Source of the DNA: Bacillota bacterium
GTDB taxonomy: Bacteria > Bacillota > Clostridia > Christensenellales > SZUA-584
NCBI GenBank assembly: GCA_023461435.1
Contig: JAEYLC010000031.1
Coordinates: forward strand, 23,126-87,125
Direction of reading: 5' to 3'
DNA: 64,000 bases
Shown: piece by piece, positions 2,993 through 22,656 of the stretch
How the letters are laid out: each line of letters begins with the position of its first letter
Position numbering within the stretch: the first letter of the stretch is position 1
Program-made: the position numbers and the translations under genes
Notes under the pieces: model-generated
The model's database searches: none
Told to the model about the DNA's origin: nothing
The model's input: only the letters and a program-made list of their open reading frames with translations

Positions 2993-3035
2993 CAGGGAAG
3001 TATAAGCTGGATAAGCTTTGATTCACGGGTGGTTC

Positions 3036-3063: not shown

Positions 3064-3129
3064 CGGCCCCTGAGCTTTGAGTTTGTACAAATAAAAGCTA
3101 TGACCCATAGCAGCTATGAGGTGAGTAAT

Positions 3130-4633
<1,504 letters not shown>

Positions 4634-4644
<11 letters not shown>

Positions 4645-5599: not shown

Positions 5600-5609
5600 G
5601 AGGACAACC

Positions 5610-6569: not shown

Positions 6570-6682
6570 CAGTAAAATAAGCTCGGGCAGTGAGATAATG
6601 AGTGACTATAATATTGTATCCAGTATCACGAGATGGTATAATCTATGATTAGATGCAATAATAAACTCATAATATTTGGAGA

Positions 6683-7387: not shown

Positions 7388-7437
7388 ACATCAGGATTCA
7401 TTTTCATATGAGCCTGCCGCAAAGTTAAGGAGCAGAC

Positions 7438-7737
7438 ATGGACTACACAATGACGGAATGCGGAGGGTGCTTGACCTGCGAAATTGCATGCTCATATAAG
7501 CACAACAAAGAATTCAACCATCTCATTTCCAGCATTGAAATCGTTGAGCTGGAGAACGAACAGGGATACAAAGTACGCCTGATTGAAGACCCTTCAACGG
7601 GCAGAATACCATGCGACGGATGCCTCGGCAGTGAGCCGATGTGTCTTTCGTATTGTCCGAAACGCGAAGAATTAAAAGCGATCCTCGATCGGCACATTGC
7701 AGAGCGCATCAAGAAAGGGGAGAGCAAGCATGAATAA
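7438..7737 (+). CDS. small 2x[4Fe-4S]-type ferredoxin-like protein, probable electron-transfer partner of the AOR
   Basis: 99 aa with CGGCLTCEIAC (C-x2-C-x2-C-x3-C) and CDGCLGSEPMCLSYCP (C-x2-C-x6-C-x3-CP). Its stop overlaps the AOR start through ATGAATAA. Confidence 0.75.
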   Translation: MDYTMTECGGCLTCEIACSYKHNKEFNHLISSIEIVELENEQGYKVRLIEDPSTGRIPCDGCLGSEPMCLSYCPKREELKAILDRHIAERIKKGESKHE

Positions 7738-9661
7738 GTGTTACGGTATTACCGGCAATACGCTGCGCGTCAATCTGACAAGCAGAGAAATCAAGGTTGA
7801 GGACAACTCGGTTTATTACCGTGATTTTTTAACGTCGAGCGGCTACGCGGCGAAGATCATATACGATGAAGTGAAGGACTGGGTGACACCGTTTGATCCC
7901 ACAAACAAGGTGATCTTTTCGGCCGGTGCGCTGATCGGCACGGTGGCGCCCGGCGCGTGCAAGATGAACATCAGCACGATCGGCCCGATGACGGGCGGCT
8001 GGGCGACGGGCTCGAGCGACAGCTATGTGGCCATGGAGCTAAAGCACGCCGGATACGACGCGATCATCGTGGAAGGGCGCAGCCACAGGCCCTGCTATCT
8101 TTACGTGACCGACGAAAAGGTCGAGATTCGGGACGCGACGGCGCTATGGGGCAAAACCACGTGGGAGACGCTCGACGCGATACGCGAGGAGCTGCAAGAC
8201 CCCAAGCTGCATATCATATCGATCGGGCCGGCGGGTGAAAATCTCGCGCGCGGCGCCTGCGTGATACAGGACCGCGGCCGCGGCTTCGGCCGCTGCGGCA
8301 CGGGCGCGGTGATCGGCTCGAAGAATTTGAAGGCCATCGTCTGCAAGGGCAAAAAGCCGATACAGGTGGCCGATCCCGAAAAATTCATGCAGGTGGCGAT
8401 GCGCTGCCGCAAAAAGATCACTGATTGCCCCGAAACCGAACGGTTCCGCAAATACGGCACGCTCGGCATATTCCAGCACAAGCAGGATATGGGCGCGATC
8501 CCGTACAGGAACTCGCAGGAGAGCGTGTTCCCCGAGGATACGGATGTCACGATGGACCCTGTGCAGGTCATCGATAAATACACGGTTTCCAAGCAGAACT
8601 TCCCGGGTTGCCCGATCGGCTGCGGCCGCCACGTGACGATCGCGGACGGGCCTTACAAAGGGCTTACGGCGGAGTTCAACCATTGGGAGGCTTTTGGCAC
8701 CATCGTGGGCCGCTGCGCGGTGACCGAGCCCACGTTTATGGTGAAGGTGACGGCCTATTGCAACGAGATGGGCATCGATTTCAATCTGGCGGGCTGCGCG
8801 ATCGCGTGGGCGATGGAGTGCTATCAGCGCGGCATACTCACCAAAGAGGATACGGACGGCATGGCGCTTGAGTGGGGCAACGAACCCCAGATACTCGAGC
8901 TGATTCGCAAGATGAGCTATCGAGAGGGCTTTGGCAACATACTCGCGGAGGGCAGCAAGCGCGCAGCCGATATTATCGGCAGGGATTCGGGCTATTACGC
9001 GATGCACATCAAGGGGCAGGATCTCTATGAGTGTCTGCGCGGCTCCAACGCGTGGGCTCTGGGAGCCACGGTATCCACGCGCGGCGGCGGCCATACCACC
9101 GGCACCTGCGGCTATGAGCAGGCGATCAATGTGGACAAGGAAAAGGCATATCAGGTGCTCGGCATCCGGAACGTGGAAGATCCTTTAAGCTACGAAGGCA
9201 AGGCGGAGGTGACATATCTGTTTGAGGTGCTTCACCGCATCGACAACTCAACGGGCATCTGCCATCAGAACACGATATACAACAAGCTCGATTATCTCGT
9301 CGTGGCGGATATCGCGGAAATGCTGTCTGCGGCCACCGGCATCGAGATGAGCGCGCAGGACCTTGAGGACATCGCGCAGCGTCAGATCAACCTTGAGAAA
9401 GCGATTAACGCGCGCTTCACGGATTTTGCGCGTAAGGACGACCTTCCGACGCCGCGCGACCAGACCGAGCCGCTCCATGCGGGTAAAATGGACGGCTGGA
9501 AGCTCGATATGGATAAATACAACGGCATGCTCGACCGCTATTATGAGTTGCACGGCTGGGATAAGCAAACAGGTTATCCCAAACGCAGCACGCTCGAAAA
9601 GTACGGCATCGGCTATGTGGCCGATGAGCTCGAGCGCAGAGGCAAGCTCGGCCGGGAATAA
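7730..9661 (+). CDS. aldehyde:ferredoxin oxidoreductase (AOR) family, tungsten/molybdo-pterin enzyme
   Basis: ORF 7697-9661, with the internal ATG 7730 coupled to the upstream stop. The N-terminus GITGNTLRVNLTSREIKVED, the size (about 643 aa) and CPIGCGRH in the Fe-S/pterin region fit the AOR family. Confidence 0.85.
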   Translation: MNKCYGITGNTLRVNLTSREIKVEDNSVYYRDFLTSSGYAAKIIYDEVKDWVTPFDPTNKVIFSAGALIGTVAPGACKMNISTIGPMTGGWATGSSDSYVAMELKHAGYDAIIVEGRSHRPCYLYVTDEKVEIRDATALWGKTTWETLDAIREELQDPKLHIISIGPAGENLARGACVIQDRGRGFGRCGTGAVIGSKNLKAIVCKGKKPIQVADPEKFMQVAMRCRKKITDCPETERFRKYGTLGIFQHKQDMGAIPYRNSQESVFPEDTDVTMDPVQVIDKYTVSKQNFPGCPIGCGRHVTIADGPYKGLTAEFNHWEAFGTIVGRCAVTEPTFMVKVTAYCNEMGIDFNLAGCAIAWAMECYQRGILTKEDTDGMALEWGNEPQILELIRKMSYREGFGNILAEGSKRAADIIGRDSGYYAMHIKGQDLYECLRGSNAWALGATVSTRGGGHTTGTCGYEQAINVDKEKAYQVLGIRNVEDPLSYEGKAEVTYLFEVLHRIDNSTGICHQNTIYNKLDYLVVADIAEMLSAATGIEMSAQDLEDIAQRQINLEKAINARFTDFARKDDLPTPRDQTEPLHAGKMDGWKLDMDKYNGMLDRYYELHGWDKQTGYPKRSTLEKYGIGYVADELERRGKLGRE

Positions 9662-9681
9662 ATAAACTTAGGGATGATGAC

Positions 9682-10914
9682 ATGAAAACGATCGCGATCA
9701 TACTGAGCATAGACACCAAGGAAGCCGAAGCGCGGTTCCTCAAAAAATGCGTGGAGCAGCGCGGCCACAAGGCGCTCGTGATTGATCTCTCCACGCGAGG
9801 CACCTATGATTTCGTGCCCGATGTGACGCGGGAAGAAGTCTGCCTCGCGGGCGGAACGGAGCCGTCCGCGCTTGCGGGGATGCCGAAAAACGAGGCGGTC
9901 CAAGCGATGATGGACGGCGCAAAAGCCATCGTGCCGTATCTGTTTGCGAAAGGCGCTTTCGACGGCATCATCTCCGCGGGCGGCCTTCAGAACACGATGG
10001 CGGCGGCGGGCGCGATGCAAACGCTGCCCTTGGGCGTGCCCAAGGTGATGGTGTCTACGGTAGCCTGCGGCAACCGCAGCTTTGAGCCGTTCGTGGGCAT
10101 CAAGGATATCATCATGATCCCGTCCATCGCCGACATCACAGGCATCAACTCGGTGACCGAGGTGATACTCGGCAACGCGGCGGCCGCGGTGATCGGTATG
10201 GCGGAGCAGTCAAGGCTGCTCCCGAAGGACGGCAAAACGCGCATTGGTACCACGCTGATGGGCGTGACCAACAACTCGGCGGTGCAGGCGGCGCGTTTGC
10301 TTGAAGCGCAGGGCTATGAGGTGATCAGCTTTCATTCCACGGGCGTCGGCGGCAGGTATCTTGAATATCTGATCGGAGAAGGGCTCATTACGGCGTCAAT
10401 GGATCTCTCGCTGCATGAGGTGATCGCGGCGGATGTGTTCAACCTTGGGTTTTCGAACGGCGCACCGGGCAGGCTCAAGGTGGGCTGCGAAAAGGGCATA
10501 CCGATGGTCGTCGCGCCGGGCGCGCTCGATTTTGTGGACATGTATCTGGCGGATTTTAAAAACGGCATTATCGGCGACTGGACGCAGCGCAAGTACAATT
10601 TGCACAACAATGCGGTGGCGCATGTGAAGGCGTTCGCGCATGAATCGAAGAAAGCCGCAGAAATCGTTGTGGAGAGGCTCAATCAGGCAAAGGGTCCGGT
10701 CACGGTGCTGCTGCCGCTGCGCGGCTTGCGCGTGGATACGCTGCCGGGACAGAGCCTGTATGATCCCGAGGTGGACGAGACGATACTGGGTGTGTTCCGC
10801 GCGGGGCTTGACAAACGCATCAAACAGATCGAGGTGGACGCCAACCTCACGGATATGGCGTTCAGTGAAGCGGCGGCAGCAGAGATGGCGGCGCTCATCG
10901 AAAACAAGCAATAA
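9682..10914 (+). CDS. UPF0261 / Tm-1-like ATP-binding domain protein
   Basis: 410 aa. The family call rests on my recognition of MKTIAIILSIDTKEAEARFLKK...ALVIDLS and the overall two-lobe layout, not on a search. Confidence 0.6.
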   Translation: MKTIAIILSIDTKEAEARFLKKCVEQRGHKALVIDLSTRGTYDFVPDVTREEVCLAGGTEPSALAGMPKNEAVQAMMDGAKAIVPYLFAKGAFDGIISAGGLQNTMAAAGAMQTLPLGVPKVMVSTVACGNRSFEPFVGIKDIIMIPSIADITGINSVTEVILGNAAAAVIGMAEQSRLLPKDGKTRIGTTLMGVTNNSAVQAARLLEAQGYEVISFHSTGVGGRYLEYLIGEGLITASMDLSLHEVIAADVFNLGFSNGAPGRLKVGCEKGIPMVVAPGALDFVDMYLADFKNGIIGDWTQRKYNLHNNAVAHVKAFAHESKKAAEIVVERLNQAKGPVTVLLPLRGLRVDTLPGQSLYDPEVDETILGVFRAGLDKRIKQIEVDANLTDMAFSEAAAAEMAALIENKQ

Positions 10915-10928
10915 CAGGAGAGACGTCG

Positions 10929-12173
10929 ATGTATTTTGAACTTCCTTTTGATAACACGGTTTCAATCTCGGACGAAGATTATGTGATCGCGACTTATTTT
11001 GCGTTCGGCATCACGAACGCCGCGGCGCTCAAAAAAGCGGGCCAGTTTGCGACCGGGCAGAGCGTCGGCACATGGCTGCCGCTGCCCGGCGTGACGCAGG
11101 ACATGGTGGAAAACTGGCAGGCCCGCGTGCTCGCCGTGTATCCGCTGCCCACCGAGGAAAGCATTACCGTGCTGCGGGTCGCGTTTCCGCATCACAATTT
11201 TGCGTCGAGCTTCGCGATGATGCTGACCGCGATGGTCGGCAACGACGTATCCACGGCGCTGCGCATCAAGCTCGTGGATCTCGAGCTGACACCCAAGGCG
11301 CTAAAGGCTTACACAGGCCCGAAGCAGAGCATTGAGGGTTGGCGAAAAGCCACGGGCGTTTATGACAGGCCGCTCGTGCTCAACATGATCAAGCCGTGCC
11401 TTGGGTTCGCGCCGAAGCGCGGCGCAGAGCTGTTTTACCAGAGCGGGCTCGGCGGCGTGGATCTCATCAAGGACGACGAGGTGTTCGGCAACACGACGGT
11501 CAGCAGCGTGGCCGGGCGCCTGAAAGCATACAACGCGGCGGCTCGGCGGCTTAAAGAGGAAACGGGCAAAGCTCCGGTCTATATTGTGAATATCACGGAT
11601 ACGCCAAGACGCATGCGCGAGCATGCGCAGGCCGTGATCGGCGAAGGCGGAAAAGCAGCTATGGTCAATTTCGTGTCCACCGGCATTGACGCGCTGCGCG
11701 AGCTTACCGACGAATTCGGCGAAAAGCTCTGCTTCCTCGCGCATTACGCGGGTGCAGGCATGATGAATTCGCCGCAGATCGGCATTGCGGGCAATGTGAT
11801 GCTCGGTGTGCTGCCGCGACTGGCCGGTGCCGATTCTGTGATGACGATGTATGCGGGTTCGGCCGATACGCATGAGCTGTTTGAGTGCCTGCAGACGGTG
11901 CAGAAGCAGAAGCTGCCGATGGGCGGCATTAAGCCGGTCATGACCTCTCTCGGGGGCGGCATCACGCCGCTGTCTATTGGCAGCACGGCCAAAACCTTCG
12001 GCAACGACGTGATACTCGGCGTGGGCGGCGCGGTGCAGGGGCACCCGATGGGCACGACGGCGGGCGCCAAGGCCGTGATGGCGGCGCTCAGCGGCGCCAT
12101 GCAGGGCAAAGAGCTTGACGAGATTGCCGCAGGTTCGCCCGAGCTTCAGGCCGCGATCGACGCGTGGCAATAG
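10929..12173 (+). CDS. RuBisCO-like protein (form IV RbcL homologue, not a carboxylase)
   Basis: GGVDLIKDDE matches the RuBisCO GG.DF.KDDE carbamyl-Lys/metal motif. IKPCLG corresponds to IKPKLG. LGGGITP and GVGGAVQGHPMG match the two phosphate-binding loops. The catalytic His residues of the HIH region are replaced (RLAGADSVM). Confidence 0.85.
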   Translation: MYFELPFDNTVSISDEDYVIATYFAFGITNAAALKKAGQFATGQSVGTWLPLPGVTQDMVENWQARVLAVYPLPTEESITVLRVAFPHHNFASSFAMMLTAMVGNDVSTALRIKLVDLELTPKALKAYTGPKQSIEGWRKATGVYDRPLVLNMIKPCLGFAPKRGAELFYQSGLGGVDLIKDDEVFGNTTVSSVAGRLKAYNAAARRLKEETGKAPVYIVNITDTPRRMREHAQAVIGEGGKAAMVNFVSTGIDALRELTDEFGEKLCFLAHYAGAGMMNSPQIGIAGNVMLGVLPRLAGADSVMTMYAGSADTHELFECLQTVQKQKLPMGGIKPVMTSLGGGITPLSIGSTAKTFGNDVILGVGGAVQGHPMGTTAGAKAVMAALSGAMQGKELDEIAAGSPELQAAIDAWQ

Positions 12174-12211
12174 CGGGCAACAACCGGGTTTCAACTTAAG
12201 AGGTACATGAT

Positions 12212-13234
12212 ATGACATCACGAGATCGCATGTTAAAGACGCTGGCGCACGAGGACACGGACGTCGTTCCGATATTCCCGAAGATCGCGTTTTCCAATGT
12301 GATTGCGGCCAAGGGTATCACGGTCAGAGATTTCATGACCGACGCGGCCAAGATGGCCGAGGCGACGATGGCGGCCCAGAAGCTCTTCGGGTGGGATGCC
12401 GTCGCGCTGCATACCGATATCGGCAGCGAGGGCAAGGCGCTCGGCAGCGTTTATGAGCAGCCTGTGAACGCGCCCTCACATATCGTGAAATACCTGCTCG
12501 ACGATATCGGCGAGTGCGGGAAGATCGTCGTACCGGACCCGCATCGCACAGCGCCGATGAAGACGGTCATCGAAGCCGTCAAGATCGTGAAAGAGAAAAT
12601 CGGCCAAGAGGTTTATGTACAGGCATGGACGAACGGGCCGCTCAACGTGGCCAGCCAGATATTGAAGCTCGATGAGCTGCTTATCGCGGTCTATGACGAC
12701 CCGGACGCGCTGCACCTGGTGCTGGAGCGCTGTCTGGAAACGGCGGTCGTTTACGCGAGGGCGCTCGCAGAAGCGGGCGCGGACGCTGTGGCGTTTGGCC
12801 ATGCGATGGCGTCGACCTCGGTGATTTCGAGAAAGCAGTATGAGGAGTTTGCGCTCCCGTATGAAAAAGAGCTGATATCGGCGATCCATCAGGTCGGGGC
12901 GGCGGCCATCACGCATATCTGCGGCAACACCGAGCCGATTATCGACCTCATCGCACAGAACGGCAGCGATATCATCGATTTCGATCATGTCTGCCGCATA
13001 GACGTTCTGAGAGAAAAAGCGCCCGATAAGATATTCCGCGGCAACATCGACCCGGCGCTGCTTGCCCTGGGAACACAGGAAGAAGTCTGTGAGGCGGTCA
13101 AAGTACTGATGGCGGCGGACGGACGCTCCGGGCGGTTCATATTGGGCTCGGGCTGCGAGGTCGCGCTGAACACGCCGGTTGAAAACCTAAACGCGTTTGT
13201 GCAGGCGGGAAGGGAATTCGGAAAGCTCGGTTAA
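12212..13234 (+). CDS. uroporphyrinogen-decarboxylase (URO-D) family protein, MT2/MtaA-like subtype
   Basis: 340 aa with a URO-D-like N-terminus (RDRMLKTLAHEDTDVVP). It carries ITHICGNT and ILGSGCEV, an H-x-C...C arrangement typical of Zn-dependent MtaA/MtbA/MtsA-type methyltransferases rather than HemE (NLGHG). Confidence 0.7.
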   Translation: MTSRDRMLKTLAHEDTDVVPIFPKIAFSNVIAAKGITVRDFMTDAAKMAEATMAAQKLFGWDAVALHTDIGSEGKALGSVYEQPVNAPSHIVKYLLDDIGECGKIVVPDPHRTAPMKTVIEAVKIVKEKIGQEVYVQAWTNGPLNVASQILKLDELLIAVYDDPDALHLVLERCLETAVVYARALAEAGADAVAFGHAMASTSVISRKQYEEFALPYEKELISAIHQVGAAAITHICGNTEPIIDLIAQNGSDIIDFDHVCRIDVLREKAPDKIFRGNIDPALLALGTQEEVCEAVKVLMAADGRSGRFILGSGCEVALNTPVENLNAFVQAGREFGKLG

Positions 13235-13443
13235 CGTATAAGTAGATAAACGGCGCGCTGCGGTTTGGACTGCTGACAAAGTAAGTATCAAATGTAATTT
13301 TGAGTGAGCGATAGCGAAGCGAAAAATCCCATGTTCAAAGCGATTTACCATGGGATGCTATCCACTGTGTAGTCCGTCGCTTTGCATAGCAAATAAGGTC
13401 ATCAAGCTGGACCGCGTTGCGGTTCAGTATAAAAGAATATTTG

Positions 13444-13540
13444 TATTTCCGAGCCGGACACACCTAAAGGAAACCATGGTGACCCGGCCGATGGGCTGTG
13501 AGCGGAAACGGCGCAGCCTCCCGCGTTTGGAAAGGAAATA
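13444..13540 (+). promoter_or_regulatory. candidate molybdenum/tungsten cofactor (Moco/Tuco) riboswitch aptamer
   Basis: P1 is TATTTCC (13444-50) pairing with GGAAATA (13534-40). Blocks I recall as conserved in the Moco RNA motif are present: CCGAGCC (13449-55), CACC..GGTG helix (13461-81), GCCTCCC (13516-22) and TGGAAAGGA (13528-36). There is a nested GCCGG/CCGGC helix and a GAAA-capped hairpin at 13494-13518. mobB lies downstream and an AOR gene upstream. No covariance model was run. Confidence 0.65.
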
Positions 13541-13574
13541 AGCAGATCAGTTTGCATCCGCAAGCTGCTCATTG

Positions 13575-13606
13575 CCCTTTTCAAAATGGTTGAGAGGGGT
13601 TTTTTT
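13575..13606 (+). terminator. putative expression platform: terminator-like hairpin whose 3' arm is the RBS of the first gene
   Basis: CCCTTTT (13575-81) pairs with AGAGGGG (13593-99), including G-U pairs. A T7 run (13600-06) follows, then TTG 13608. GAGAGGGG is also the only plausible RBS. Confidence 0.45.
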
Positions 13607-13607
13607 A

Positions 13608-14648
13608 TTGAAAAAAGGCTTAAGGCCGATCGCCGTTTTGGGCATAATCGCCGTCATGAGCGGTCTTCTTATCGGCTGTGCAGCAGAAAAGCTTAAGGGC
13701 GATGCCGTGACTGCCGGTGAAATCGCATTAACGGGGCTGGCCGGGGGAGAGCGAGTCATCACAGTGGATGAGATCAAAAAGCTCGAACCGTTTGAGGGAC
13801 ATGTGGAAGGGGCAGACTCTCAAGGAAACGTGATTGAGACCGACATCAAGGGGGGGCGGCTCAGTGAGCTGCTCGCGCTTTATGGTATCAACCAAACCGA
13901 TTTAAACGGTATCCGGCTGACAGCGTCAGACGGCTATTCCATAGAGGTGCCGCATGAGATTCTGGCGCGGCGTGATGTGATACTCGCCTACGAGACGGAC
14001 GGTCAGCCGCTCGATAAGGACAACGCGCCTGTTCACGTGTTTATCCCCGAAGAAAGAGCGATGTACTGGGTACGCATGCTCAGCAAAATCGAAGTCATTG
14101 AGGCGGCGCTCGGCGAAACGGCGACGGGTGTGACCATCATGGAATCTGCTTATGACAAAAACGATTACACCGATTTTGAGCTGAACGGGCAGACATATGC
14201 GGCGCTCGATACGCGAAAAATTTTGGCTGACGGTACTGGCGCGGATACCGTGCGGATGCTTGCGGCGGACGGGCTTGAAAAGAACGAGACACTGGAGAAC
14301 TTTTATAAAGGCGTCATTCAGCTGGAGGGAGAAAATGCGCCGCAGTTTGCGTCCGATACATTGCCAATCGGCATGTCTGTGAAAAAGCTGCTGGTGATTC
14401 AAAGCGGCACGCAGGCATTTTACTTCTTAAGCAGCGCCGAAGCGACAGACGGATCGGTTAGTCTTGAAAAGATAGCGAAAGACTGCGGTCTTGCAGAGGC
14501 CGATGCGTATGTGCTGCGTTTTGATGATGGCGGCGAAAAAACGGTGACGCCTGAGGAGCTTAAGACATTGGCTGTGGGACCGGACGGCGAAATGCTCACG
14601 GAAGACGCACAGAAGAACCCCAAACTCATTTCGATTCAATTATTTTAG
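13608..14648 (+). CDS. lipoprotein with repeated molybdopterin-oxidoreductase-like (Oxidored_molyb fold) domains, function unknown
   Basis: ORF 13572-14648. TTG 13608 gives MKKGLRPIAVLGIIAVMSGLLIGC, a Sec-type lipobox without a twin-Arg. The region LSELLALYGI...IRLTASDGYSIEVPHEIL..RDVILAYETDGQPL...APVHVFIPEE.AMYWVRMLSKIEV resembles the YedY/sulfite-oxidase Moco-domain pattern. A second, weaker copy is present (MLAADGLEKNE...IQLEGENAPQF...VKKLLVIQ). Confidence 0.6.
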   Translation: MKKGLRPIAVLGIIAVMSGLLIGCAAEKLKGDAVTAGEIALTGLAGGERVITVDEIKKLEPFEGHVEGADSQGNVIETDIKGGRLSELLALYGINQTDLNGIRLTASDGYSIEVPHEILARRDVILAYETDGQPLDKDNAPVHVFIPEERAMYWVRMLSKIEVIEAALGETATGVTIMESAYDKNDYTDFELNGQTYAALDTRKILADGTGADTVRMLAADGLEKNETLENFYKGVIQLEGENAPQFASDTLPIGMSVKKLLVIQSGTQAFYFLSSAEATDGSVSLEKIAKDCGLAEADAYVLRFDDGGEKTVTPEELKTLAVGPDGEMLTEDAQKNPKLISIQLF

Positions 14649-14660
14649 GAGGATGATATA

Positions 14661-15137
14661 ATGACAAAAAAGCTTTTGACTGCGGTATTGATCACAATGA
14701 TGGTCGTCTCGGCGCTGGCGGCTTGCGCGCCTGCGCCTGCGCAAACAGAGCAGGCGGCGTGGTCCGTTGAAGTGAAGGGCGCGGAAAAGGATGCTTTCAC
14801 GAGCGCGGATTATGCGAAGCTCGATCCCGTCACCATCGACACGGTGCTCAAAACCAAGGACGGCACTCAGGCGGACGAAGCATGGCAGGGCGTGCTATTA
14901 AAGGATGTGCTTAATGAGCTGGGCGTGAAGGATTACACCTCCATAACGCTCGAAGCATCGGACGGTTACGCGAAAGACTATACGCCGGACATCGTGAATG
15001 ATGATCAGACGATACTCGGCACCGTTGTCAACGGAAAAGCGCTGACGCAGGAGGATGGCTATGTGTGCGCGGTTCCGGCCAGCCAGCCGGGCAACATGCG
15101 CGTGAAGCTGCTCGTGAAAATCACGGTCAATGAATAA
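14661..15137 (+). CDS. small lipoprotein, single Oxidored_molyb-like domain (paralogue of 13608 and 15698)
   Basis: AGGAGG RBS and signal peptide with lipobox LAAC. The region WSVEVKGA...WQGVLLKDVLNELGV...ITLEASDGYAKDY...ILGTVVNGKAL...MRVKLLVKITV follows the domain pattern. No Cys is present in the W.G region where Moco enzymes carry their ligand. Confidence 0.6.
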   Translation: MTKKLLTAVLITMMVVSALAACAPAPAQTEQAAWSVEVKGAEKDAFTSADYAKLDPVTIDTVLKTKDGTQADEAWQGVLLKDVLNELGVKDYTSITLEASDGYAKDYTPDIVNDDQTILGTVVNGKALTQEDGYVCAVPASQPGNMRVKLLVKITVNE

Positions 15138-15705
15138 GAAAAAAGGGCTTCTCGCGTCGTACTCGGCGCGCGATCTGATCAACATTGCGCTGTGCGCTGC
15201 GCTCGGCATTGCCGTGAAGCCCATACTGACACCGCTCGTTCATATCGTCACCGGGCCGCTGGTTGTCCCCGGAGGAGCCATGGCGGGCGGCTTGTATATG
15301 CTGTTCATCATTGTGCCTGTCGGGCTCACAAAAAAACATGGCGCATCAACGCTCACCTGCCTGGTGCAGGCGCTGCTCATGATGGTTACGGGTGTGCCCG
15401 GCAGCCATGGCGTATTGAGCCTCGTGACGTATGTGCTGCCCGGCGTGGCGGTAGATCTTATTTCATTGACGGCGGTTAAAAAGGGGCTGAATGCGTTCAC
15501 TTGCCTGATCTGCGGGCTCGCGGCCAACACGGTCGGCTCGTTTCTGTCGAATCTGGTGTTTTTCCGGCTGCCGCTTGTGCCGCTTATGCTGATGCTTTTT
15601 ACCGCGGCGCTGTCCGGATGCTTCGGCGGGCTGATTGCGTGGCAGCTGATCAAGCGGCTGCGGCGGTTTGCTCCGGCTGTGGGGAAGGGAGAATCGCATG
15701 AATAA
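15130..15705 (+). CDS. six-TM integral membrane protein, ECF-transporter S-component-like
   Basis: 191 aa. By eye there are six hydrophobic spans. The N-terminal ARDLINIALCAALGIAV resembles S-component starts. Its start overlaps the upstream stop (ATGAATAA). No EcfA/EcfT genes are in the window. Confidence 0.5.
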   Translation: MNKKKGLLASYSARDLINIALCAALGIAVKPILTPLVHIVTGPLVVPGGAMAGGLYMLFIIVPVGLTKKHGASTLTCLVQALLMMVTGVPGSHGVLSLVTYVLPGVAVDLISLTAVKKGLNAFTCLICGLAANTVGSFLSNLVFFRLPLVPLMLMLFTAALSGCFGGLIAWQLIKRLRRFAPAVGKGESHE

Positions 15706-16204
15706 AAGAGTCTGGCTGATGGCGGATATCATTTTGCTGCTGGCGGCCGGTGTCGCCGTGTTCGTAATGCTGAATGCGCAAACGCTGCCAAATGGCGGAA
15801 GCGATGCTGTCACCATCATACAAAATGACCAGACGGTGACCTTTGATATTGCGTATTTAAAGGGGCTGTCCAAAACGACGTTTACCGCAAATCTCGATAC
15901 CAACGGGCAGGACCCGGTGGAAAAAACCTTCGGCGGTGTGCCGCTCACCGATGTGCTCAAAGGCATGGGGTTTGATTTGAGCGGCGCGTCTCAGGTCGTC
16001 TTCAAAGCGTCAGACGGCTATTCGACGGTGGTGACGGCGGAGGAAGCAACGGATTCGGACAACGTTTATGTGGTTTATGAAAGGGACGGCAAGCCTTCGG
16101 GCACAATGGCGCAGGGCGGAACGGGCCCGATAGAGATCGTGATCAGAAAGGATGCGTTCTCCCAGCGCTGGTGCAAGTACCTGCGGGAGATTGACATCGA
16201 GTGA
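15698..16204 (+). CDS. membrane-anchored Oxidored_molyb-like domain protein (third paralogue)
   Basis: ORF 15668-16204. ATG 15698 overlaps the upstream stop (ATGAATAA). An N-terminal TM span (VWLMADIILLLAAGVAVFVML) is followed by FGGVPLTDVLKGMGF...VVFKASDGYSTVV...VYVVYERDGKP...GPIEIVIRKD...RWCKYLREIDI. Confidence 0.6.
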   Translation: MNKRVWLMADIILLLAAGVAVFVMLNAQTLPNGGSDAVTIIQNDQTVTFDIAYLKGLSKTTFTANLDTNGQDPVEKTFGGVPLTDVLKGMGFDLSGASQVVFKASDGYSTVVTAEEATDSDNVYVVYERDGKPSGTMAQGGTGPIEIVIRKDAFSQRWCKYLREIDIE

Positions 16205-16274
16205 GCGCGTCTTGCTTCAAGTGCCTGCTGTTTAGGGCAATTATTTCGCTGTACAATAATACTGGGAGCAGCTT

Positions 16275-16781
16275 ATGAAGATTTTCAGCATTGTGGGGTA
16301 CTCGCATTCGGGCAAAACCGCAACGGCGGCAGCGCTGATCAGGGAGCTGATCAGGCGCGGCTATACCGTCGGCGCGGTGAAGGAGAGCCACCACGCGATC
16401 AGAACGGATACGCAGGGGACGAATACCGATCTGCTGCGTCAGGCTGGGGCCGGTCTCGTCGCGGCCAGATCACAAAATGAAACGCATGTGTTTTTTGACG
16501 AACGGCTGCCGCTGAAGAACATATTGGCTTTTTTTGATTATGATTATGTGGTGCTCGAGGGCGTGAGCGATGTCGCAGTGCCGCAGATCGTCACGGCGGT
16601 TGACACAGAGGGCATTGAGGCAAAGCTCAGCGCGCAGACGTTCGCCGTCTCGGGCGTGATTTCAAAGACGCTGCGCGAATACAAGGGCCTGCCCGTGATC
16701 AACGGCCTCGCGGATACGGCGAGGCTTGCGGATTTCATTGAAGAAAAGGCCGTTATCTGGCGGAAAGATTGGGAAGAATAG
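16275..16781 (+). CDS. mobB: molybdopterin-guanine dinucleotide biosynthesis adapter protein MobB
   Basis: Matches the MobB pattern: MKIFSIVGYSHSGKTATAAALIRELIRRGYTVGAVKESHH (Walker A plus the KH.HH-like motif), then TDLLRQAGA. About 168 aa. Confidence 0.8.
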   Translation: MKIFSIVGYSHSGKTATAAALIRELIRRGYTVGAVKESHHAIRTDTQGTNTDLLRQAGAGLVAARSQNETHVFFDERLPLKNILAFFDYDYVVLEGVSDVAVPQIVTAVDTEGIEAKLSAQTFAVSGVISKTLREYKGLPVINGLADTARLADFIEEKAVIWRKDWEE

Positions 16782-16814
16782 AGATAACACCGCCGGGGAA
16801 TGAGGTGAGTAGAT

Positions 16815-17525
16815 TTGACGGAGCCGTTAACCGTCCGAATAGAACAGACGATACTCGATCAAATGCGGATTGCGGAGTACAGTGTGGTGTGCCGCTTTTG
16901 CAGCCGCCGCAACGAGGTATACCGGATTCACGCGAGCCGTGACGATGGCTCTGTTTTGGATTTCGTTTATAAGGTGTATATCGCGGGCCATATAGAAACC
17001 GAATATCATTATTTGCACCAAACGCAGGGTGTGGGGACGCCCAAGGTGTTGGCCAAGGGAAAAAACGCGCTGTGCCTTGAATGCATAGACGGGCAACTGC
17101 TGATCGAAAGGCTTGAGGAAGCGGAAAAAACGAACGAGCCTTTTTATCCGTATCTGGATATGCTGATCGATTTTCTGGCGCGGTTTTACGAGGCGCTGCC
17201 CGGCTATGTTTACGGCGATATCAATCTGCGCAATTTTATCATCGCGCAGGACGGGCTATACGGCATTGACCTTGAAGAGACAAAACACGGGAATATCGCT
17301 GCCGATATCGGCAGGACCGCCGCGTATCTTCTGACGTACGATCCAGCCAACACGCCATACAAGAAGGACATCGCGGACTATTTTATTAACGCGGGTGCTG
17401 ATAGATTTTCAATCAGCAAAAGCGAGATCATGGACAATATGCGCATGGAGCTCGATTATATGAGGGTCCGACGGCAGTTGAGAGACGAAAGAGCACGCCC
17501 GACTGCTCTGGACAAAGAAGCATAA
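16815..17525 (+). CDS. protein-kinase-like fold protein (APH/RIO/Kdo-kinase-like), function unknown
   Basis: TTG start 5 nt after GAGGTGAG. The catalytic-loop-like YGDINLRNFIIAQDGLYGIDLEE (D..N.N...ID.E) is typical of small-molecule or atypical kinases. Confidence 0.55.
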   Translation: MTEPLTVRIEQTILDQMRIAEYSVVCRFCSRRNEVYRIHASRDDGSVLDFVYKVYIAGHIETEYHYLHQTQGVGTPKVLAKGKNALCLECIDGQLLIERLEEAEKTNEPFYPYLDMLIDFLARFYEALPGYVYGDINLRNFIIAQDGLYGIDLEETKHGNIAADIGRTAAYLLTYDPANTPYKKDIADYFINAGADRFSISKSEIMDNMRMELDYMRVRRQLRDERARPTALDKEA

Positions 17526-17772: not shown

Positions 17773-20700
17773 CTATTTGACAGTCACCGTGCATGAAACG
17801 GTATGACCGTTGCTCGTCGTCGCGGTGACGACGGCGGTGCCCGGCGATACTCCTTTCACGCGCCCCTTGGCATCAACGGTCACAATTGCCGAATTGCCGC
17901 TGGACCATGTGACGGTCTTGAAGTCCGTGTTCTTGGGCAATACTGTGGCCCTGAGCGAGGCTGTCTTTCCCGTTTTGAGCGTCAGCGTTTGTTTGGACAT
18001 CTTGACGCCCGTCGGGTATATCGGGGTGACTGTGACCGTGCAGCTTGCCGTGACGCCGCTGCCATCCTTCGCGGTGCATGTGATAACGGCTGTGCCGCCC
18101 GCTTTGCCGGTCACCACGCCCGCGCTCGACACGGAGGCCACCTTGGAATTGCTGGACTTCCATGCTATCTTCTTGTTGCTCGCGGTGACGGGGGCGGCTG
18201 AAGCGGTGAGCTTCAGCTTCTGAGTCCGCGCAATGGTCGCGGTGCTCACATTCAGCGATATGGACGCAACGGGCTGTTTGACGGTGATGGTCTTTTTGAT
18301 CGTTGTGGTCTTGGTTTTCACCTTTCCCTTTTTGTCAGTGGTTTGATACACGATCTTCGTGATGATCGTCGCTTTGCCGCCCGCAAGGAACGTGACGGTG
18401 CCGCCCGAATCCACCGACGCCACACTTGGGTTGCTTGAAGAGTAAGTCACCGACACAACCGTATAACCCTTGGGTGCCGCCGGAGGAACAATGGTCAAAG
18501 CCGTTCCCGCATTCGCTCTGGACGGCAGCTTTTTGGCCGCGATATTGCCCATATGCTTTGGCTGCCCGACCGCCACGGAGCATGTCGCCGTATTGGCCGG
18601 ATTTTGCGCGTCGCGCGCGGCTGCCGTGTACGTGCCCGCGGCGAGACCGCCGAATTGCGCCGAGCTTTGCCAGCTTGTGCCACCATTCAAGGAATATTCA
18701 TACGAACCGCTGTCTCCGCCCGATGCCGTGATCCCGACGGAACCGTTCGAAGCGCCGTAAATGGACACATCTATCTTGCTGCAACCGATGCCCACTGGTG
18801 TGGCGGCAGCGAACTGTGCCGTGTAAGAGGCGCTGCTCAGCGCGGTGAACGTATAGACTGAGCTCCTTGATACCTCCATACCGCTCTTTTTCCAGCAGAC
18901 GAAGCAGTATTTCGGTTTGGGTGTTGCCGTCAGTGTGACGGTAGCGCCTTTGTCGTACCTGCCGCCGCCCGTCGCTGTCCCGTATGAAGAATTGCTGGGC
19001 AAAGCCGTAATGACAAACTGCTGCGTCTGTACGGTGACATTGCATGTTTGCGTTGTGGTCTCTGCCGTTTGCTTGCCTGTTGCCGTATTGTCGGTGTTGG
19101 TCACCGCACAGTAGTAATACAGTGTGCCGATCGTATCGGTCGGAGCGCTGTAGGCAGCGGAACTCGCACCTGAAATCAGCGTACCGTTGGTGTTGTTGTC
19201 TTCGGTATTCTTATACCACTGATAGGACAGCGTGCCTTGGCTCACATTCGCGGTCACTGTCAGATCGGCTGATCCGCCTTCGGACACCGTGATGCTCTGC
19301 GGCTGGCCCGTGATCTGCGGCGCCTCGGCATCGACCGCGGCTTCCGTCGCATCAAACGAGTAACTGGCCGTCAGTGTGCCGCTTGTGCGATTTGAGATAA
19401 GCGCCGTATGCCCGTTAATAGTCACCGTCACGCCGTCTGTAAACACATATCCGGCCTTTGCGGTGAGTGTGACGCTGGCCTTATAAACCGTGCCAAAGCC
19501 AAACGGGTTGTCCGCTGGCTCCCAGGTGACAGCGGAGGCCGTGACGCTGTCGGCCGTGACGGATGCTGTTGTATCGGGGGTTCCTTTTGCCGTCGGCGCG
19601 TCGATACCCGTGACCGCCACGCCGGTTATCGGCTCCGGTTCCGTCGCATCAAAAGTGTAGCTCGCAATAAGCGTACCACCGGCGCCCGGCTCGACGTCAG
19701 CCGTCTCCCCGTTGATGGTTACCGTCGCATTGAGGTCAAATTCAAAGCCGGTCTGCGCGGTCAGCGTGACGCTCGCGGTATAGGCCGTATGATATCCGAA
19801 TGCCGTGACATCGGGTTCCCATGTGACCTCGGATGCCGTGACGCCCTGGGGAGAAACCAAGGCCGTTTTATCGGGTGTGTTTCCGGCCGCGGGTGCGGTA
19901 ATATCCGTCACCTCTACTTTTGTGATCAGCTCCGGTTCCGTCGCGTCAAATGTGTAGCTGGCGGTCAGCGAGCCGTTGGTGTTGAGAACTGGCTGTACCG
20001 TATGCCCGTTGATGGTCACTGTTGTTTCGGCTGTAAACGCATAGCCGGGTTGAGGGTACAGCTTGACGCTTGCGGTGTACACGGTATGATAGCCGAATGA
20101 TGAGACGGACGGCGTCCATGTGACAGCGGATGCCGTTACGTTCCCGGTTTCAACGGTTGCCGTCGTGTCAGGAGGGCTTCCTGCCACCGGCACGTCAATG
20201 CCTGTCACCGTCGCGCTGCTGATTTCTGTGGGAGGGACTGCAGTTTGCTTATAGAGGTACATTGTTTTGGCATTGGTGTCGTTCGAAGCGACGGCAAAAT
20301 AGTACGGATTGCTCCCAGTCTGATACAAGTAATACGTGCTGGAAGAGCCTTTAATCTTAATCACATGATTGGTGCTGTCATATTGCCAATCGGTGTTGGC
20401 CGAGCCGTCATCAGTCGTTTTCAGAGAGATTATGTCCCCGCCCCCGCTCGGCCGGGTCAAAAAGTTGCTCCCGTTTTTCACGTTATAGCCGTTGCCGTCA
20501 GTGGTGAACGTCCATAGCATGTTGGAGCTGATATCTTGTGAATTTATGATGCTGTCATTCACGGTGACGGCGGTGGCGGCAAGGTAGTTTGAATTGACGA
20601 CGCTTGCCGTCAGCGCATAATTTGTGGTGCCCACATCGACAATCACATATGTGCAGCCGCTCTCTATGCCCGTTGCATATTCATACGTATAGCGAGGGGC

Positions 20701-22656
20701 GGCTGCGGTTTTATCAAACGCGTATGTCACCGTCAAAGTGCCGTTGCTGTTGAGCGAAACGGTGTCCGTCGGCGCGCCGTTAACCGTCACGGCGGTCTCC
20801 GATGTGAACTCATAGGCGAATTGCGCCGATAATGTGATGCTTGCCGTATAGGCCGTATCGTATCCGAAGGGATTGGCGGCCGGGTTCCACGTGACGACGG
20901 CGGGGGTTATCACGCCCGTTGAAGCTGTGGACGCGCTCGTATCCGGCGCCGCGCCCGCGGCCGGCTCATCAACGCCGGTGATATCGATCCGGTCAATCGC
21001 AATCGGATTGGACACGATCAGTTTATAAAGATAGATGCTGTTGCTCGCGTTAGTCCCGTAGGTGAAAAAATTCGTATCCCCGGACGATGTCTGGTAGAGG
21101 AACAAATCACCCTGACCGGTGCTGGTTACGTTGAGGTTATGCGTTGTGCTGTTATATTTCCAATCCGTATATGCGGCGCCTTCATCTTCTGTATCGAGAT
21201 ATACGCTGCCGGTCGTGCCGGTTAATCGATGGAGGATGCTGCCGCCGTTTTTTACATTATAGCCGTTTCCGTCCGTGGTCAGTTCCCAGACCATACTGTC
21301 GTCCACATCGCCAGGGTCTAGTGTGCCGCCGCTAACGGCCACGGGGCTGCACATCAAAAAATCCGTGTCGCCGATTGTCACGGGGGAGGTGGTCAAGGCA
21401 TAGGCATCGGTTTCCGATTTGTCGACGATCACATATCTGGCGCCGCTTTCAATGCTTAGCGCATATTCATATGTGACGCTGCCTGCGTCGCCGGAAGTGA
21501 CTCTGACCCTTGCCGCCGCACTCGTGACCGAAGCAGTATCCCCGTCCTTTAAGTTGGTAATCTGGCAATAGTAATTTTTTATTCCGGGGGTTTGCGTCGG
21601 CGCCGAGAAAACGGGTGAATTTTCTCCGATCGGCGTCCCGCCAATGCTGTCGCTGTTGTCATCCTGATACCACTGATAGGAGAGCGACCCGCCGTCGCTG
21701 ACGGTCGCATCCACGGAAAGGGACGCGTCTTCGCCAACGCCGACGGAGACATCCTGCGGCGGCGTATTGATTGTGGGCTTCTCCGCTATAAACGTGGTAT
21801 CCACGGTCACGTTATATTCGGATCCGGTCGAGCCGCTTAAATTCTTGTATTGGAAGTTAAGAACCGTGTCTGTGCCGTTTTTCGTCATTGTCAGGAGTAC
21901 GCCGGCAGCGTTATTAACCGCGGCATAGATTGACCCCATATTGACATATGTAAAATGGATAGCAGCCGGAGCCAGACCCGCGGCGCACTGAATCGTATCA
22001 CCGTCCTTTTTGACCGTTCCGTATCCCGGGTCGCTCAGCGTATGGTTGTGTCCCCATAGCACAATCGCGTTGGGATATTTATTGAGCCTTTGGACTAATT
22101 CCGGCGCGTTGGCGGTTGTTCTGGATTCATAGTAATGCAGCGGATAGTGAGACACGACGATGATCGGCTTCGACGGATCAATCTGCGAGAGAGCGGTATC
22201 GAGCGCTTCAATCTTATCCATAGAGATGATCTGGTTTATCGTTGTTGTATCAAGATCTAAAGCATAGATCGCGTAATCGTCGCCGTCGTACACAAGCCCG
22301 CTGTCGTAGGTGCCTGTCAAATCATGATTTCCTCTGGCCTTAACGACCGGGACGTCATTGAAGATGCTCTTCGCCATGGATGCGCATGACGCCGCCACTT
22401 CAGCGGCATTCGCATCGGTTCTGTATGTAAAATCCCCTCCGAATATCATATGGTTGAGCGTTGACGTACCCTCATGAAGAGCGGTCAGCCAATCCTCCAG
22501 GTCTTCAGTTCTGTCGTGGACATCAGATGTGATCAGGATGGAAACGGGTGGGGGGCTGTCGGCAAATGCCACTGCCGGCAACAGGCCAAAAATGAGCATT
22601 ATCGACATTATGAAGGCTAATACTCTGGCTGCGGATCTGCATTTCCTCGTTTTCAT
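17773..22656 (-). CDS. giant secreted multi-domain protein: N-terminal calcineurin-like metallophosphoesterase followed by Ig-like, repeat and Big_2 domains
   Basis: 1627-aa ORF with AGGAGG RBS and signal peptide (VLAFIMSIMLIFGLLPAVAFA). Phosphoesterase motifs are TSDVHD, GGDFTY, RGNHD and WGHNH. After these come two I-set-like Ig domains (LSYQWY...YYC), a duplicated unknown module, four repeats of about 99 aa, an InlB-B-repeat-like segment, a SprB-like repeat and four C-terminal Big_2-like domains (TVTWSSGNSAIVTVDAKGRVKGVSPGTAVVTATT). I saw no LPXTG, SLH or choline-binding anchor. Confidence 0.9.
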   Translation of the reverse strand: MKTRKCRSAARVLAFIMSIMLIFGLLPAVAFADSPPPVSILITSDVHDRTEDLEDWLTALHEGTSTLNHMIFGGDFTYRTDANAAEVAASCASMAKSIFNDVPVVKARGNHDLTGTYDSGLVYDGDDYAIYALDLDTTTINQIISMDKIEALDTALSQIDPSKPIIVVSHYPLHYYESRTTANAPELVQRLNKYPNAIVLWGHNHTLSDPGYGTVKKDGDTIQCAAGLAPAAIHFTYVNMGSIYAAVNNAAGVLLTMTKNGTDTVLNFQYKNLSGSTGSEYNVTVDTTFIAEKPTINTPPQDVSVGVGEDASLSVDATVSDGGSLSYQWYQDDNSDSIGGTPIGENSPVFSAPTQTPGIKNYYCQITNLKDGDTASVTSAAARVRVTSGDAGSVTYEYALSIESGARYVIVDKSETDAYALTTSPVTIGDTDFLMCSPVAVSGGTLDPGDVDDSMVWELTTDGNGYNVKNGGSILHRLTGTTGSVYLDTEDEGAAYTDWKYNSTTHNLNVTSTGQGDLFLYQTSSGDTNFFTYGTNASNSIYLYKLIVSNPIAIDRIDITGVDEPAAGAAPDTSASTASTGVITPAVVTWNPAANPFGYDTAYTASITLSAQFAYEFTSETAVTVNGAPTDTVSLNSNGTLTVTYAFDKTAAAPRYTYEYATGIESGCTYVIVDVGTTNYALTASVVNSNYLAATAVTVNDSIINSQDISSNMLWTFTTDGNGYNVKNGSNFLTRPSGGGDIISLKTTDDGSANTDWQYDSTNHVIKIKGSSSTYYLYQTGSNPYYFAVASNDTNAKTMYLYKQTAVPPTEISSATVTGIDVPVAGSPPDTTATVETGNVTASAVTWTPSVSSFGYHTVYTASVKLYPQPGYAFTAETTVTINGHTVQPVLNTNGSLTASYTFDATEPELITKVEVTDITAPAAGNTPDKTALVSPQGVTASEVTWEPDVTAFGYHTAYTASVTLTAQTGFEFDLNATVTINGETADVEPGAGGTLIASYTFDATEPEPITGVAVTGIDAPTAKGTPDTTASVTADSVTASAVTWEPADNPFGFGTVYKASVTLTAKAGYVFTDGVTVTINGHTALISNRTSGTLTASYSFDATEAAVDAEAPQITGQPQSITVSEGGSADLTVTANVSQGTLSYQWYKNTEDNNTNGTLISGASSAAYSAPTDTIGTLYYYCAVTNTDNTATGKQTAETTTQTCNVTVQTQQFVITALPSNSSYGTATGGGRYDKGATVTLTATPKPKYCFVCWKKSGMEVSRSSVYTFTALSSASYTAQFAAATPVGIGCSKIDVSIYGASNGSVGITASGGDSGSYEYSLNGGTSWQSSAQFGGLAAGTYTAAARDAQNPANTATCSVAVGQPKHMGNIAAKKLPSRANAGTALTIVPPAAPKGYTVVSVTYSSSNPSVASVDSGGTVTFLAGGKATIITKIVYQTTDKKGKVKTKTTTIKKTITVKQPVASISLNVSTATIARTQKLKLTASAAPVTASNKKIAWKSSNSKVASVSSAGVVTGKAGGTAVITCTAKDGSGVTASCTVTVTPIYPTGVKMSKQTLTLKTGKTASLRATVLPKNTDFKTVTWSSGNSAIVTVDAKGRVKGVSPGTAVVTATTSNGHTVSCTVTVK
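19330..20226 (-). repeat. three tandem 297-bp (99-aa) intragenic repeats, with a fourth diverged copy near 20700-21000
   Basis: The block CTCCGGTTCCGTCGC(A/G)TCAAA..TGTAGCT recurs at 19633 and 19930, and its shorter core TTCCGTCGCATCAAA recurs at 19342, giving a spacing of 297 nt. At protein level the units end ...SYTFDATEPE. Confidence 0.8.

Follow-up and report, generated by a model that had tools for sequence, protein, structure and literature searches.

Gene content of the locus

The window analysed here is the whole 64-kb stretch of contig JAEYLC010000031.1 (assembly GCA_023461435.1, a Bacillota bacterium), and the system studied in it is a six-gene operon preceded by a molybdenum or tungsten cofactor (Moco/Tuco) riboswitch, all on the + strand (Table 1). 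The operon encodes three exported proteins of the sulfite oxidase (SUOX) or Oxidored_molyb fold (A, B and D), a membrane protein (S) of the substrate-binding class of transporters of the energy-coupling factor (ECF) type, the molybdopterin-cofactor adaptor MobB and a kinase-like protein. The original prediction, made from the letters of the sequence, had proposed this set of parts, including the riboswitch, two lipoproteins and one anchored protein of the Oxidored_molyb fold, a six-helix ECF-like protein, MobB and a nearby aldehyde ferredoxin oxidoreductase (AOR), and had read it as an acquisition system for a cofactor or metal with no described counterpart. These parts were recovered by the searches reported below, and two claims, a second domain copy in A and a small-molecule kinase, held in part.

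All six open reading frames (ORFs) are intact, with good ribosome-binding sites (RBSs) and coupled junctions, and the proposed translational coupling was seen as identical 8-nt ATGAATAA overlaps at the B/S and S/D junctions. With the starts chosen, the six products match entries of a collection of 15 billion proteins residue for residue.

Relatives of S were found in at least 523 species in a scan of one genome per species. The best 80 loci were fetched, and the counts of cluster members given below refer to those 80; individual loci (L) and proteins (P) are cited by number. Cluster members were identified using the proteins of the window and proteins from gaps as queries. The loci came from Clostridia, Tissierellia, Syntrophomonadaceae, Halanaerobiales, Limnochordia, Thermoleophilia, Coriobacteriia, one spirochaete and one Dehalococcoidia. 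For the SUOX-like family, an alignment of 73 members was made and its profile was aligned to SorT, and riboswitches in the loci were searched with a covariance model built from six Rfam-verified examples.

Table 1. Features of the operon, with positions in the window and the match or method behind each assignment.
Feature	Position	Strand	Basis
Moco/Tuco riboswitch aptamer, P3-less ("Tuco type")	13435..13553	+	Rfam RF01055
Expression platform, terminator hairpin and seven T	13574..13607	+	Terminator scan, minimum free energy (MFE) fold
Protein A, 346-aa lipoprotein, N-terminal degenerate SUOX (PruR-like) domain	13608..14648	+	PF00174, E 1.2e-11
Protein B, 158-aa lipoprotein, single degenerate SUOX (PruR-like) domain	14661..15137	+	PF00174, E 6.5e-11
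S, ECF S component, YkoE-related distinct family, six transmembrane helices	15130..15705	+	PF09819, E 4e-9
Protein D, 168 aa, N-terminal transmembrane anchor and degenerate SUOX (PruR-like) ectodomain	15698..16204	+	PF00174, E 3.3e-8
MobB, P-loop molybdopterin-cofactor adaptor, short form	16275..16781	+	TIGR00176
Kinase-like protein, 236 aa, APH/RIO type	16815..17525	+	RIO1 and APH matches

Membrane and exported proteins

S was assigned to the YkoE-type S-component family PF09819 with 37.1 bits (cutoff 25.2). Its AlphaFold (AF2) model, with a predicted local distance difference test (pLDDT) score of 85, has six long helices, and the best Foldseek match in the PDB was the ECF S component 5EDL (TM 0.70), which we take to be YkoE, followed by ThiT, RibU and the S chain of 4HZU. 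The fold places S among the S components that carry thiamine and riboflavin rather than beside the metal-type CbiM/NikM. A membrane partner of the MsrQ/YedZ type was ruled out by Pfam and by the fold, no such match being returned for the S model. The family is small and sharply bounded, with 238 representatives at E <=1e-10 among 1.84 billion. Across the family this gene set goes together with ECF modules, EcfA/A' being encoded inside the cluster in 77 of the 80 loci with S relatives and EcfT (CbiQ) in 69.

The three exported proteins scored above the PF00174 cutoff of 24 bits (A 44.9, B 42.5, D 33.7). A and B carry Sec-type lipoprotein signals (lipoboxes LLIGC and ALAAC) and D a signal anchor, and none of the three has an RR motif, in agreement with the proposed lack of a twin-arginine (Tat) signal. 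Across the family the N-termini listed, judged by eye, are lipoprotein signals or anchors without a canonical twin-arginine; a loose RR pattern matched 6 of 171 sequences. The AF2 model of D (pLDDT 86) gave as its best Foldseek match the pterin-binding protein PruR (7KOM, E 5e-8, TMt 0.75), then 7KOU/7KOS, 7RKB (with neopterin) and 7KP2, with SorA (1e-7), chicken sulfite oxidase and YedY among the further matches. In sequence, the similarity of the A/B/D family to PruR is remote (profile E 1.3e-5).

The absence of a Cys at the usual cofactor-ligand position, also claimed originally, extends to the family: none of the 73 members has a Cys in the Mo/W-ligand column, where alignment to SorT gives T, S or D, and the Cys-bearing hairpin is about 24 residues shorter than that of SorT. 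The A and B types have no conserved Cys at all, and D-type proteins have a near-invariant one within RWCK. The conserved motifs of D are D-G-Y and Q-R-W-C-K. Over the 73 members the Asp of D-G-Y is the sole invariant column, Gly is kept in at least 90% and Tyr is the majority residue; the motif aligns with N-D-Y of PruR 7KOM, and Asp takes the place of the PruR Asn in some PruR groups (2026 review). A C-terminal Trp about 10 residues from the end occurs in A (YWVR) and D (RWCK) and is absent from B of the window (MRVK); its equivalence to the PruR Trp is positional only. The P-W motif that PruR has at the Cys position is absent from the family alignment. PruR itself is a Sec-exported degenerate SUOX fold without the Mo-ligand Cys and with a shortened hairpin, in which a Tyr and a Trp sandwich the bound reduced pterin (PMC11194511).

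Judged from their sequences, A, B and D are PruR-like binding modules with predicted pterin binding rather than enzymes of the sulfite oxidase type, because the lost Cys and the short hairpin are common to PruR and this family, and the stacking motif may be as well. A catalytic SUOX enzyme was ruled out by the missing Cys, the missing hairpin and the lack of a Tat signal. The claim that A contains at least two domain copies stood for one copy. A second full SUOX domain in the A protein of the window was rejected, since its C-terminal region returned weak partial repeats of the fold (independent E values, i-E, 0.66 and 2.8); the repeats are clearer in homologues (i-E ~1e-7).

Giant proteins with SUOX-like domains, longer than 2100 aa or ended by the contig, were also present (L031 3-6380, L049 1-6417, L068 1-6342, L014 12845-16352 and L034 12593-16543). 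The L031 giant has in addition three SLH cell-wall anchors and propeller repeats, and SLH-anchored giants of more than 2100 residues occur in the Syntrophomonas-like loci.

Riboswitch and expression platform

The upstream element proposed as a Moco/Tuco riboswitch matched RF01055 over the full-length model (1-135) with 65.8 bits (gathering score 36; E 1.3e-13), and this was the sole Rfam RNA family detected in the window. Aligned to the RF01055 family, the aptamer has no P3 hairpin. Moco/Tuco RNAs have been split by P3, the P3-less class tracking tungsten-cofactor (Tuco) metabolism (Regulski et al., PMC2408646).

Twenty bases 3' of the aptamer, the terminator scan and the MFE fold gave a hairpin of 11 bp (13574-13600) with seven T after it. 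The 3' arm of this hairpin is the RBS GAGAGGGG of gene A, which starts with TTG, and the 5' arm GCCCTTTTCAA can pair instead with the conserved aptamer 3' segment TGGAAAGGAAATAA, forming an antiterminator. The antiterminator duplex reaches -9.8 kcal/mol, compared with -4.0 for shuffled arms, and none of 200 shuffles was as good.

The covariance model found 44 riboswitches across 41 of the 80 loci, all on the strand of the cluster, and of the 67 loci whose upstream sequence is long enough, at least 39 show one ahead of the cluster, which bears out the proposed association of the gene set with Moco riboswitches. Together with that of the window, these make 45 aptamers; P3 is missing in all of them, with 1-4 nt at its site, and 39 are followed on the 3' side by a terminator-like hairpin. 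In the alignment of the 45, 89.7% of cells are paired, against 37-50% in slid controls, and 19 of 26 pairs changed on both sides, in an alignment that is fitted to the model and so favours the structure.

We infer that the riboswitch is an OFF switch, in which the ligand would hold GGAAAGGA in the aptamer and let the hairpin form that terminates transcription and sequesters the RBS, because terminators follow 39 of the 45 aptamers and the antiterminator of the window beats 200 of 200 shuffles.

Tandem P3-less riboswitches precede the cluster in three loci (L022 6526-6844, L052 4944-5226 and L062 1435-1713); most of these aptamers have a terminator-like hairpin of their own, and none was found after L062 1599-1713. 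In L014 and L034, a P3-less riboswitch also lies 3' of the ECF cluster, ahead of the gene for the giant SUOX-like-domain protein. For Syntrophomonas wolfei, two P3-lacking RNAs beside putative Moco-utilizing sulphite oxidase genes were listed as an unexplained exception (PMC2408646). Those "sulphite oxidase" genes are very probably members of the SUOX-like family studied here.

Related clusters and gene fusions

The consensus order of the cluster is riboswitch, sometimes an FMN_bind lipoprotein, A-type lipoprotein, B-type lipoprotein, S, exported phosphodiesterase, D, EcfA, EcfA', EcfT, MobB (usually with a Cys-rich extension) and kinase. A SUOX-like protein of the Oxidored_molyb fold accompanies S in 79 of the 80 loci, and D is its near-universal partner.

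The prediction of MobB after the transport genes was borne out by an equivalog match to TIGR00176 (87.2 bits, cutoff 76.2) with the Walker A motif GYSHSGKT. MobB is encoded in 59 of the 80 loci, in 47 of them with the Cys-rich C-terminal extension that is typical of the relatives and missing from the copy of the window. In L045 (6783-7934) and L063 it is fused to a domain resembling S-adenosylmethionine-dependent methyltransferases.

The kinase adjoins MobB and occurs in 47 loci. Its matches are marginal, with 24.3 bits against a cutoff of 22 for RIO1 (E 2.8e-5) and 22.2 against 23.2 for APH (E 1.3e-4); the APH model matches 28 of the 39 family members. In those 39, K53, D135, N140 and D152 never vary and at least 90% have E63, so that the Asp-x4-Asn loop and the Mg-binding Asp are retained. 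The claimed small-molecule-kinase-like protein is thus upheld as a kinase whose catalytic residues are intact, and small-molecule and protein substrates cannot be separated by its sequence. The genes after MobB vary, with a class-V aminotransferase (cysteine-desulfurase-like) at L036 11998-13227 and a member of the endonuclease/exonuclease/phosphatase family at L029 11858-12685.

An exported type I phosphodiesterase/nucleotide pyrophosphatase (Phosphodiest) is present in 52 of the 80 loci. In the L010 sequence it retains the metal-binding and nucleophile motifs of the superfamily, and its N-terminal part gave weak matches to the SUOX-like domain (i-E 0.0025-0.3).

Several of these parts occur fused to S. 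In L045, L063, P0155, P0162 and P0165 an additional transmembrane helix links it to a SUOX-like domain of the D type, and in L077, P0149, P0153 and P0154 it is joined to the phosphodiesterase. P0268 (L081 153-1790) is a continuous ORF of 545 residues that combines a MobA-like nucleotidyltransferase, S and a SUOX-like domain; its top NCBIfam matches are all MobA, the best with E 9e-24, under the curated cutoff. S of L046 has a MobA-like gene immediately upstream. No riboswitch was detected on the short P0268 contig. An NTPase_1 (THEP1-like) gene lies 3' of P0268, and three other clusters are flanked by a member of this NTPase family.

FMN_bind proteins were found in 27 loci and a NapH-like Fe-S/FMN_bind membrane protein in 13. 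A subgroup without riboswitch, made up of L074 (14100-15986) and the Sedimentibacter/Gudongella-type loci L026, L037, L040, L042-L044 and L078-L080, adds a NapH-like Fer4_5+FMN_bind membrane protein and one more A-type protein, about 525 aa long; L074 also carries an FAD_binding_2+FMN_bind reductase. The extracytoplasmic redox module of the Sedimentibacter/Gudongella-type loci suggests that the ligand may need reduction outside the cell.

In five loci (L011, e.g. 2552-7960, L020, L021, L059 and L062), a FecCD and Peripla_BP_2 type II ATP-binding cassette (ABC) importer and a DUF364/DUF4213 protein ("putative heavy-metal chelation") are inserted between the B-type lipoprotein and S, and may form a separate metal or cofactor route.

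Window copy and its neighbourhood

The cluster of the window is a reduced version, with no EcfA/A'/T, phosphodiesterase or FMN_bind protein in the cluster or anywhere else in the 64 kb, and with the short form of MobB. Its closest relative, L001, from a Bacillota metagenome-assembled genome (MAG), has the same reduced layout and also lies beside AOR, UPF0261 and RuBisCO-like genes. The amino-acid identity between the two is 66-84%, and the ratio of nonsynonymous to synonymous substitution rates (dN/dS) over the five shared genes is 0.09-0.30 (0.15 for B). These low values against L001 indicate that the reduced cluster is kept by purifying selection.

The adjacent AOR gene of the original prediction (AFOR_N/C, 7697-9661, + strand) was found on the same strand 3.8 kb upstream of the riboswitch, and AOR, a tungsten-pterin enzyme, adjoins the cluster in the window, L001 and L007. 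It is the first gene of a co-directional set (7697-13234, + strand) directly upstream of the riboswitch, which continues with UPF0261, a RuBisCO-like (form IV-like) protein whose closest models, MtnW and OiaX, are both sub-cutoff, and a URO-D methyltransferase of the MtaA/CmuA type. AOR, UPF0261 and the RuBisCO-like gene recur by the L001 cluster, and AOR and UPF0261 by the L007 cluster.

On the other side, a convergent gene (17773-22656, - strand) encodes a secreted protein of 1627 aa with an N-terminal calcineurin-like metallophosphoesterase, many repeats of about 100 aa and C-terminal Ig-like/Big_2 domains. An exported phosphoesterase thus adjoins a cluster that, unlike most of its relatives, has lost its own phosphodiesterase, which may be coincidence. 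The regions 1-7400 and 23000-47300 are devoted to carbohydrate catabolism, with two Peripla_BP_4/BPD_transp_2 sugar ABC systems, GntR/FCD regulators, class II aldolases, a split transketolase, a transaldolase, an FGGY kinase, xylose-isomerase-like TIM barrels and a MOFRL/DUF4147 glycerate-kinase-like gene. No Mo- or W-related genes were seen in these two regions.

Interpretation

On balance, and with a little better than even confidence, we read the operon as half of an ECF-type importer, the half that captures and delivers the substrate, a molybdopterin-type pterin. That pterin could be metal-free molybdopterin, the tungsten cofactor, or either of them after dephosphorylation or degradation. 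From the observed identities of the parts, their folds, conservation, riboswitch link and fusions we infer which way the substrate is moved, that it is a pterin rather than an oxyanion, and that a relay passes it on. The acquisition logic put forward in the original prediction gains support from the relatives, most of which carry EcfA/A'/T, the exported phosphodiesterase and the kinase, and from the fusions of S to the pterin-binding fold, the phosphodiesterase and MobA. A salvage importer fits these parts because S belongs to a class that carries heteroaromatic vitamins, the exported fold binds pterins, a phosphoesterase outside is matched by a kinase inside, and the end product would repress the operon. 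The most direct hint that the cargo of S is of the molybdopterin type comes from the MobA-like proteins fused or adjacent to S in single cases, MobA acting on metal-bound molybdopterin.

The proposed system would work as follows. When the tungsten cofactor is low, the P3-less riboswitch would be unbound and GGAAAGGA would pair with the 5' arm of the terminator, permitting transcription and translation; with cofactor bound, the terminator and RBS-sequestering hairpin would form and the operon would be off. Outside the membrane, the PruR-like domains of lipoproteins A and B and of the anchored D would bind the ligand and pass it inward to the YkoE-like S, with uptake driven by an EcfAA'T module that is encoded in the cluster in most species and would be elsewhere in the genome of the window. 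In the full version, the exported phosphodiesterase would trim the ligand outside the cell, the kinase would re-phosphorylate it inside, and MobB, with MobA, would hand it on to enzymes such as the neighbouring AOR.

Several findings weigh against this reading. The absence of EcfA/A'/T from the 64 kb leaves transport dependent on an unseen module. In group II ECF transporters many S components normally share one EcfAA'T module, and a shared module elsewhere must be assumed for the window because its 64 kb lack EcfT; S would presumably use it in the group II manner. The window is also without the phosphodiesterase that would trim the ligand. The redox partners, FMN_bind and NapH-like proteins, would be no less at home in a redox enzyme system than with a transporter, and the MobA fusion is a single case on a 2.6-kb metagenome contig with a sub-cutoff MobA score. 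No recurrent moa or moe genes were seen among the 84 nearest non-cluster ORFs scanned in the cluster flanks, which neither supports nor refutes cofactor auxotrophy. Syntrophomonas wolfei has many Moco RNAs, including some on molybdopterin-synthesis operons (PMC2408646), and if the genus is representative, cofactor auxotrophs are not the only carriers of the system; the Syntrophomonas members among the fetched loci are MAGs, not S. wolfei itself. The truncated pocket of PruR is thought too small for intact Moco, and the true ligand may for that reason be a smaller or trimmed pterin or a fragment (PMC11194511).

Import of an oxyanion, tungstate or perhaps molybdate, with the SUOX-like domains as oxyanion-binding accessories in the manner of NikK/NikL or CbiN, appears unlikely. 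ECF metal transporters (NikMNQO/CbiMNQO) do use extra extracytoplasmic partners, SUOX active sites bind oxyanions, and the exclusively Tuco-type riboswitch points to tungsten. Moco/Tuco riboswitches commonly control importers of the modABC/tupABC type (PMC2408646; PMC3766115). Against this, S groups structurally with the vitamin rather than the metal S components, the soluble domains have their best match in an established pterin binder and seem to retain the residues with which it stacks pterins, and oxyanion import leaves the phosphodiesterase, the kinase and the MobA fusion without a role. The five loci that hold a separate FecCD/Peripla_BP_2 importer in the same operon further indicate that the ECF system is not a mere duplicate of a metal importer.

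The redox partners favour the opposite direction of transport, in which the ECF module would export cofactor and load the Sec-exported SUOX-fold apoproteins as extracytoplasmic W/Mo redox enzymes, fed with electrons by the FMN_bind and NapH-like proteins and matured independently of Tat. This would make sense of the enzyme fold, of the near-invariant RWCK Cys in D types, of MobB as a cofactor-insertion adaptor and of the 27 loci with FMN_bind lipoproteins, the 13 with the NapH-like protein and some with the FAD_binding_2+FMN_bind reductase, and ECF subunits support extracytosolic cofactor (flavin) trafficking in Listeria (PMC9973259). We nevertheless regard export as improbable, since the metal-ligand Cys and hairpin are missing in all three protein types and A and B lack any conserved Cys, an OFF switch responding to abundant cofactor is the wrong logic for a cofactor consumer, the phosphodiesterase and kinase are left unexplained, and the cluster of the window has no redox partners.

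Uptake or sensing of a pterin other than molybdopterin (of the neopterin, monapterin or folate-precursor type), as with PruR, and with a purely regulatory link to Tuco, was rated lower still. PruR-like pockets suit small pterins better than Moco (PMC11194511), and relatives of S carry small heteroaromatic vitamins, but the Tuco-type riboswitch in 41 of the 80 loci, MobB in 59 and the fused or adjacent MobA tie the cluster to molybdopterin cofactors, on which MobB and MobA act, and the clusters contain neither a signalling partner of the DcpA type nor folate genes. That the window copy is a decaying remnant, no longer transporting after loss of EcfA/A'/T, the phosphodiesterase and the MobB extension, is very hard to credit given its six intact and coupled ORFs with good RBSs, its intact riboswitch and terminator, the same layout in L001 at dN/dS of 0.09-0.30, and the customary sharing of EcfAA'T among group II transporters.

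Uptake of a molybdopterin-type pterin would have wider consequences. We give about an even chance to the broader proposal that anaerobes share molybdopterin-type cofactors, or products of their breakdown, with one another as they do vitamins and that this widespread, unannotated cluster is the first dedicated bacterial system for their uptake and salvage. The standard view, stated for most organisms in PMC9026282, is that cells cannot import Moco and have to make it themselves. The literature searched, most subscription journals being outside the search, yielded no account of an ECF importer for Moco/Tuco, nor of the cluster itself, and the claim that no transporter of such composition has been described stands within that scope. 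If the reading is true, it changes how the capacity for W/Mo enzymes is predicted from the genomes of anaerobic communities (gut, digesters, sediments), explains the 2008 anomaly of Tuco-type riboswitches ahead of "sulfite oxidase" genes (PMC2408646), and adds nutrient capture to the signalling role known for the PruR fold. The three small soluble domains, the S component and the kinase are reagents open to direct testing and could aid the handling or delivery of a very labile cofactor.

Comparison with known systems

The ECF vitamin importers (YkoEDC and BioMNY of group I, ThiT and RibU of group II) share with the system the six-helix S fold, control by a cofactor riboswitch and, in 67-77 of the 80 relatives of the window's S, dedicated EcfA, EcfA' and EcfT (CbiQ). 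Vitamin S components normally bind their substrate alone, whereas here one to four exported SUOX-fold proteins, MobB, a kinase and often a phosphodiesterase are encoded in the operon. CbiMNQO and NikMNQO with NikK/NikL also have an S component encoded alongside small anchored or exported partners, and D adjoins or is fused to S as CbiN is with CbiM, but S is not of the CbiM/NikM family and the partner fold is another one. TupABC, WtpABC and ModABC share the Moco/Tuco riboswitch input and the goal of supplying W/Mo enzymes; they are ABC importers of the canonical kind, in which a periplasmic protein binds the oxyanion, and none of their families is present in the cluster of the window.

YedY/MsrP-MsrQ and the sulfite oxidase family have the Oxidored_molyb fold, an extracytoplasmic location and pairing with a gene for a small membrane protein in common with A, B and D, which differ in having no Tat signal, no ligand Cys, a much shorter domain and an ECF S component in place of the heme-binding MsrQ as partner. 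Two further likenesses are analogies only, between unrelated families: NadN/PnuC/NadR salvage of NAD follows the same logic of a phosphatase outside, an importer and a kinase inside, and the Isd heme relay likewise places paralogous binding domains (there NEAT domains; here SLH giants, lipoproteins and a membrane anchor) at different depths.

The closest likeness of the exported proteins by fold is to PruR of Agrobacterium, Vibrio and Klebsiella (7KOM, 7KOS, 7RKB), which is also a small Sec-exported degenerate SUOX fold with no Cys and a truncated hairpin. PruR, with its P-W motif, is found in Proteobacteria and partners the cyclic di-GMP enzyme DcpA (GGDEF/EAL) for signalling, whereas A, B and D occur as several paralogues per operon in anaerobic Bacillota and Actinomycetota, beside a transporter, MobB and a kinase and with a Tuco riboswitch.

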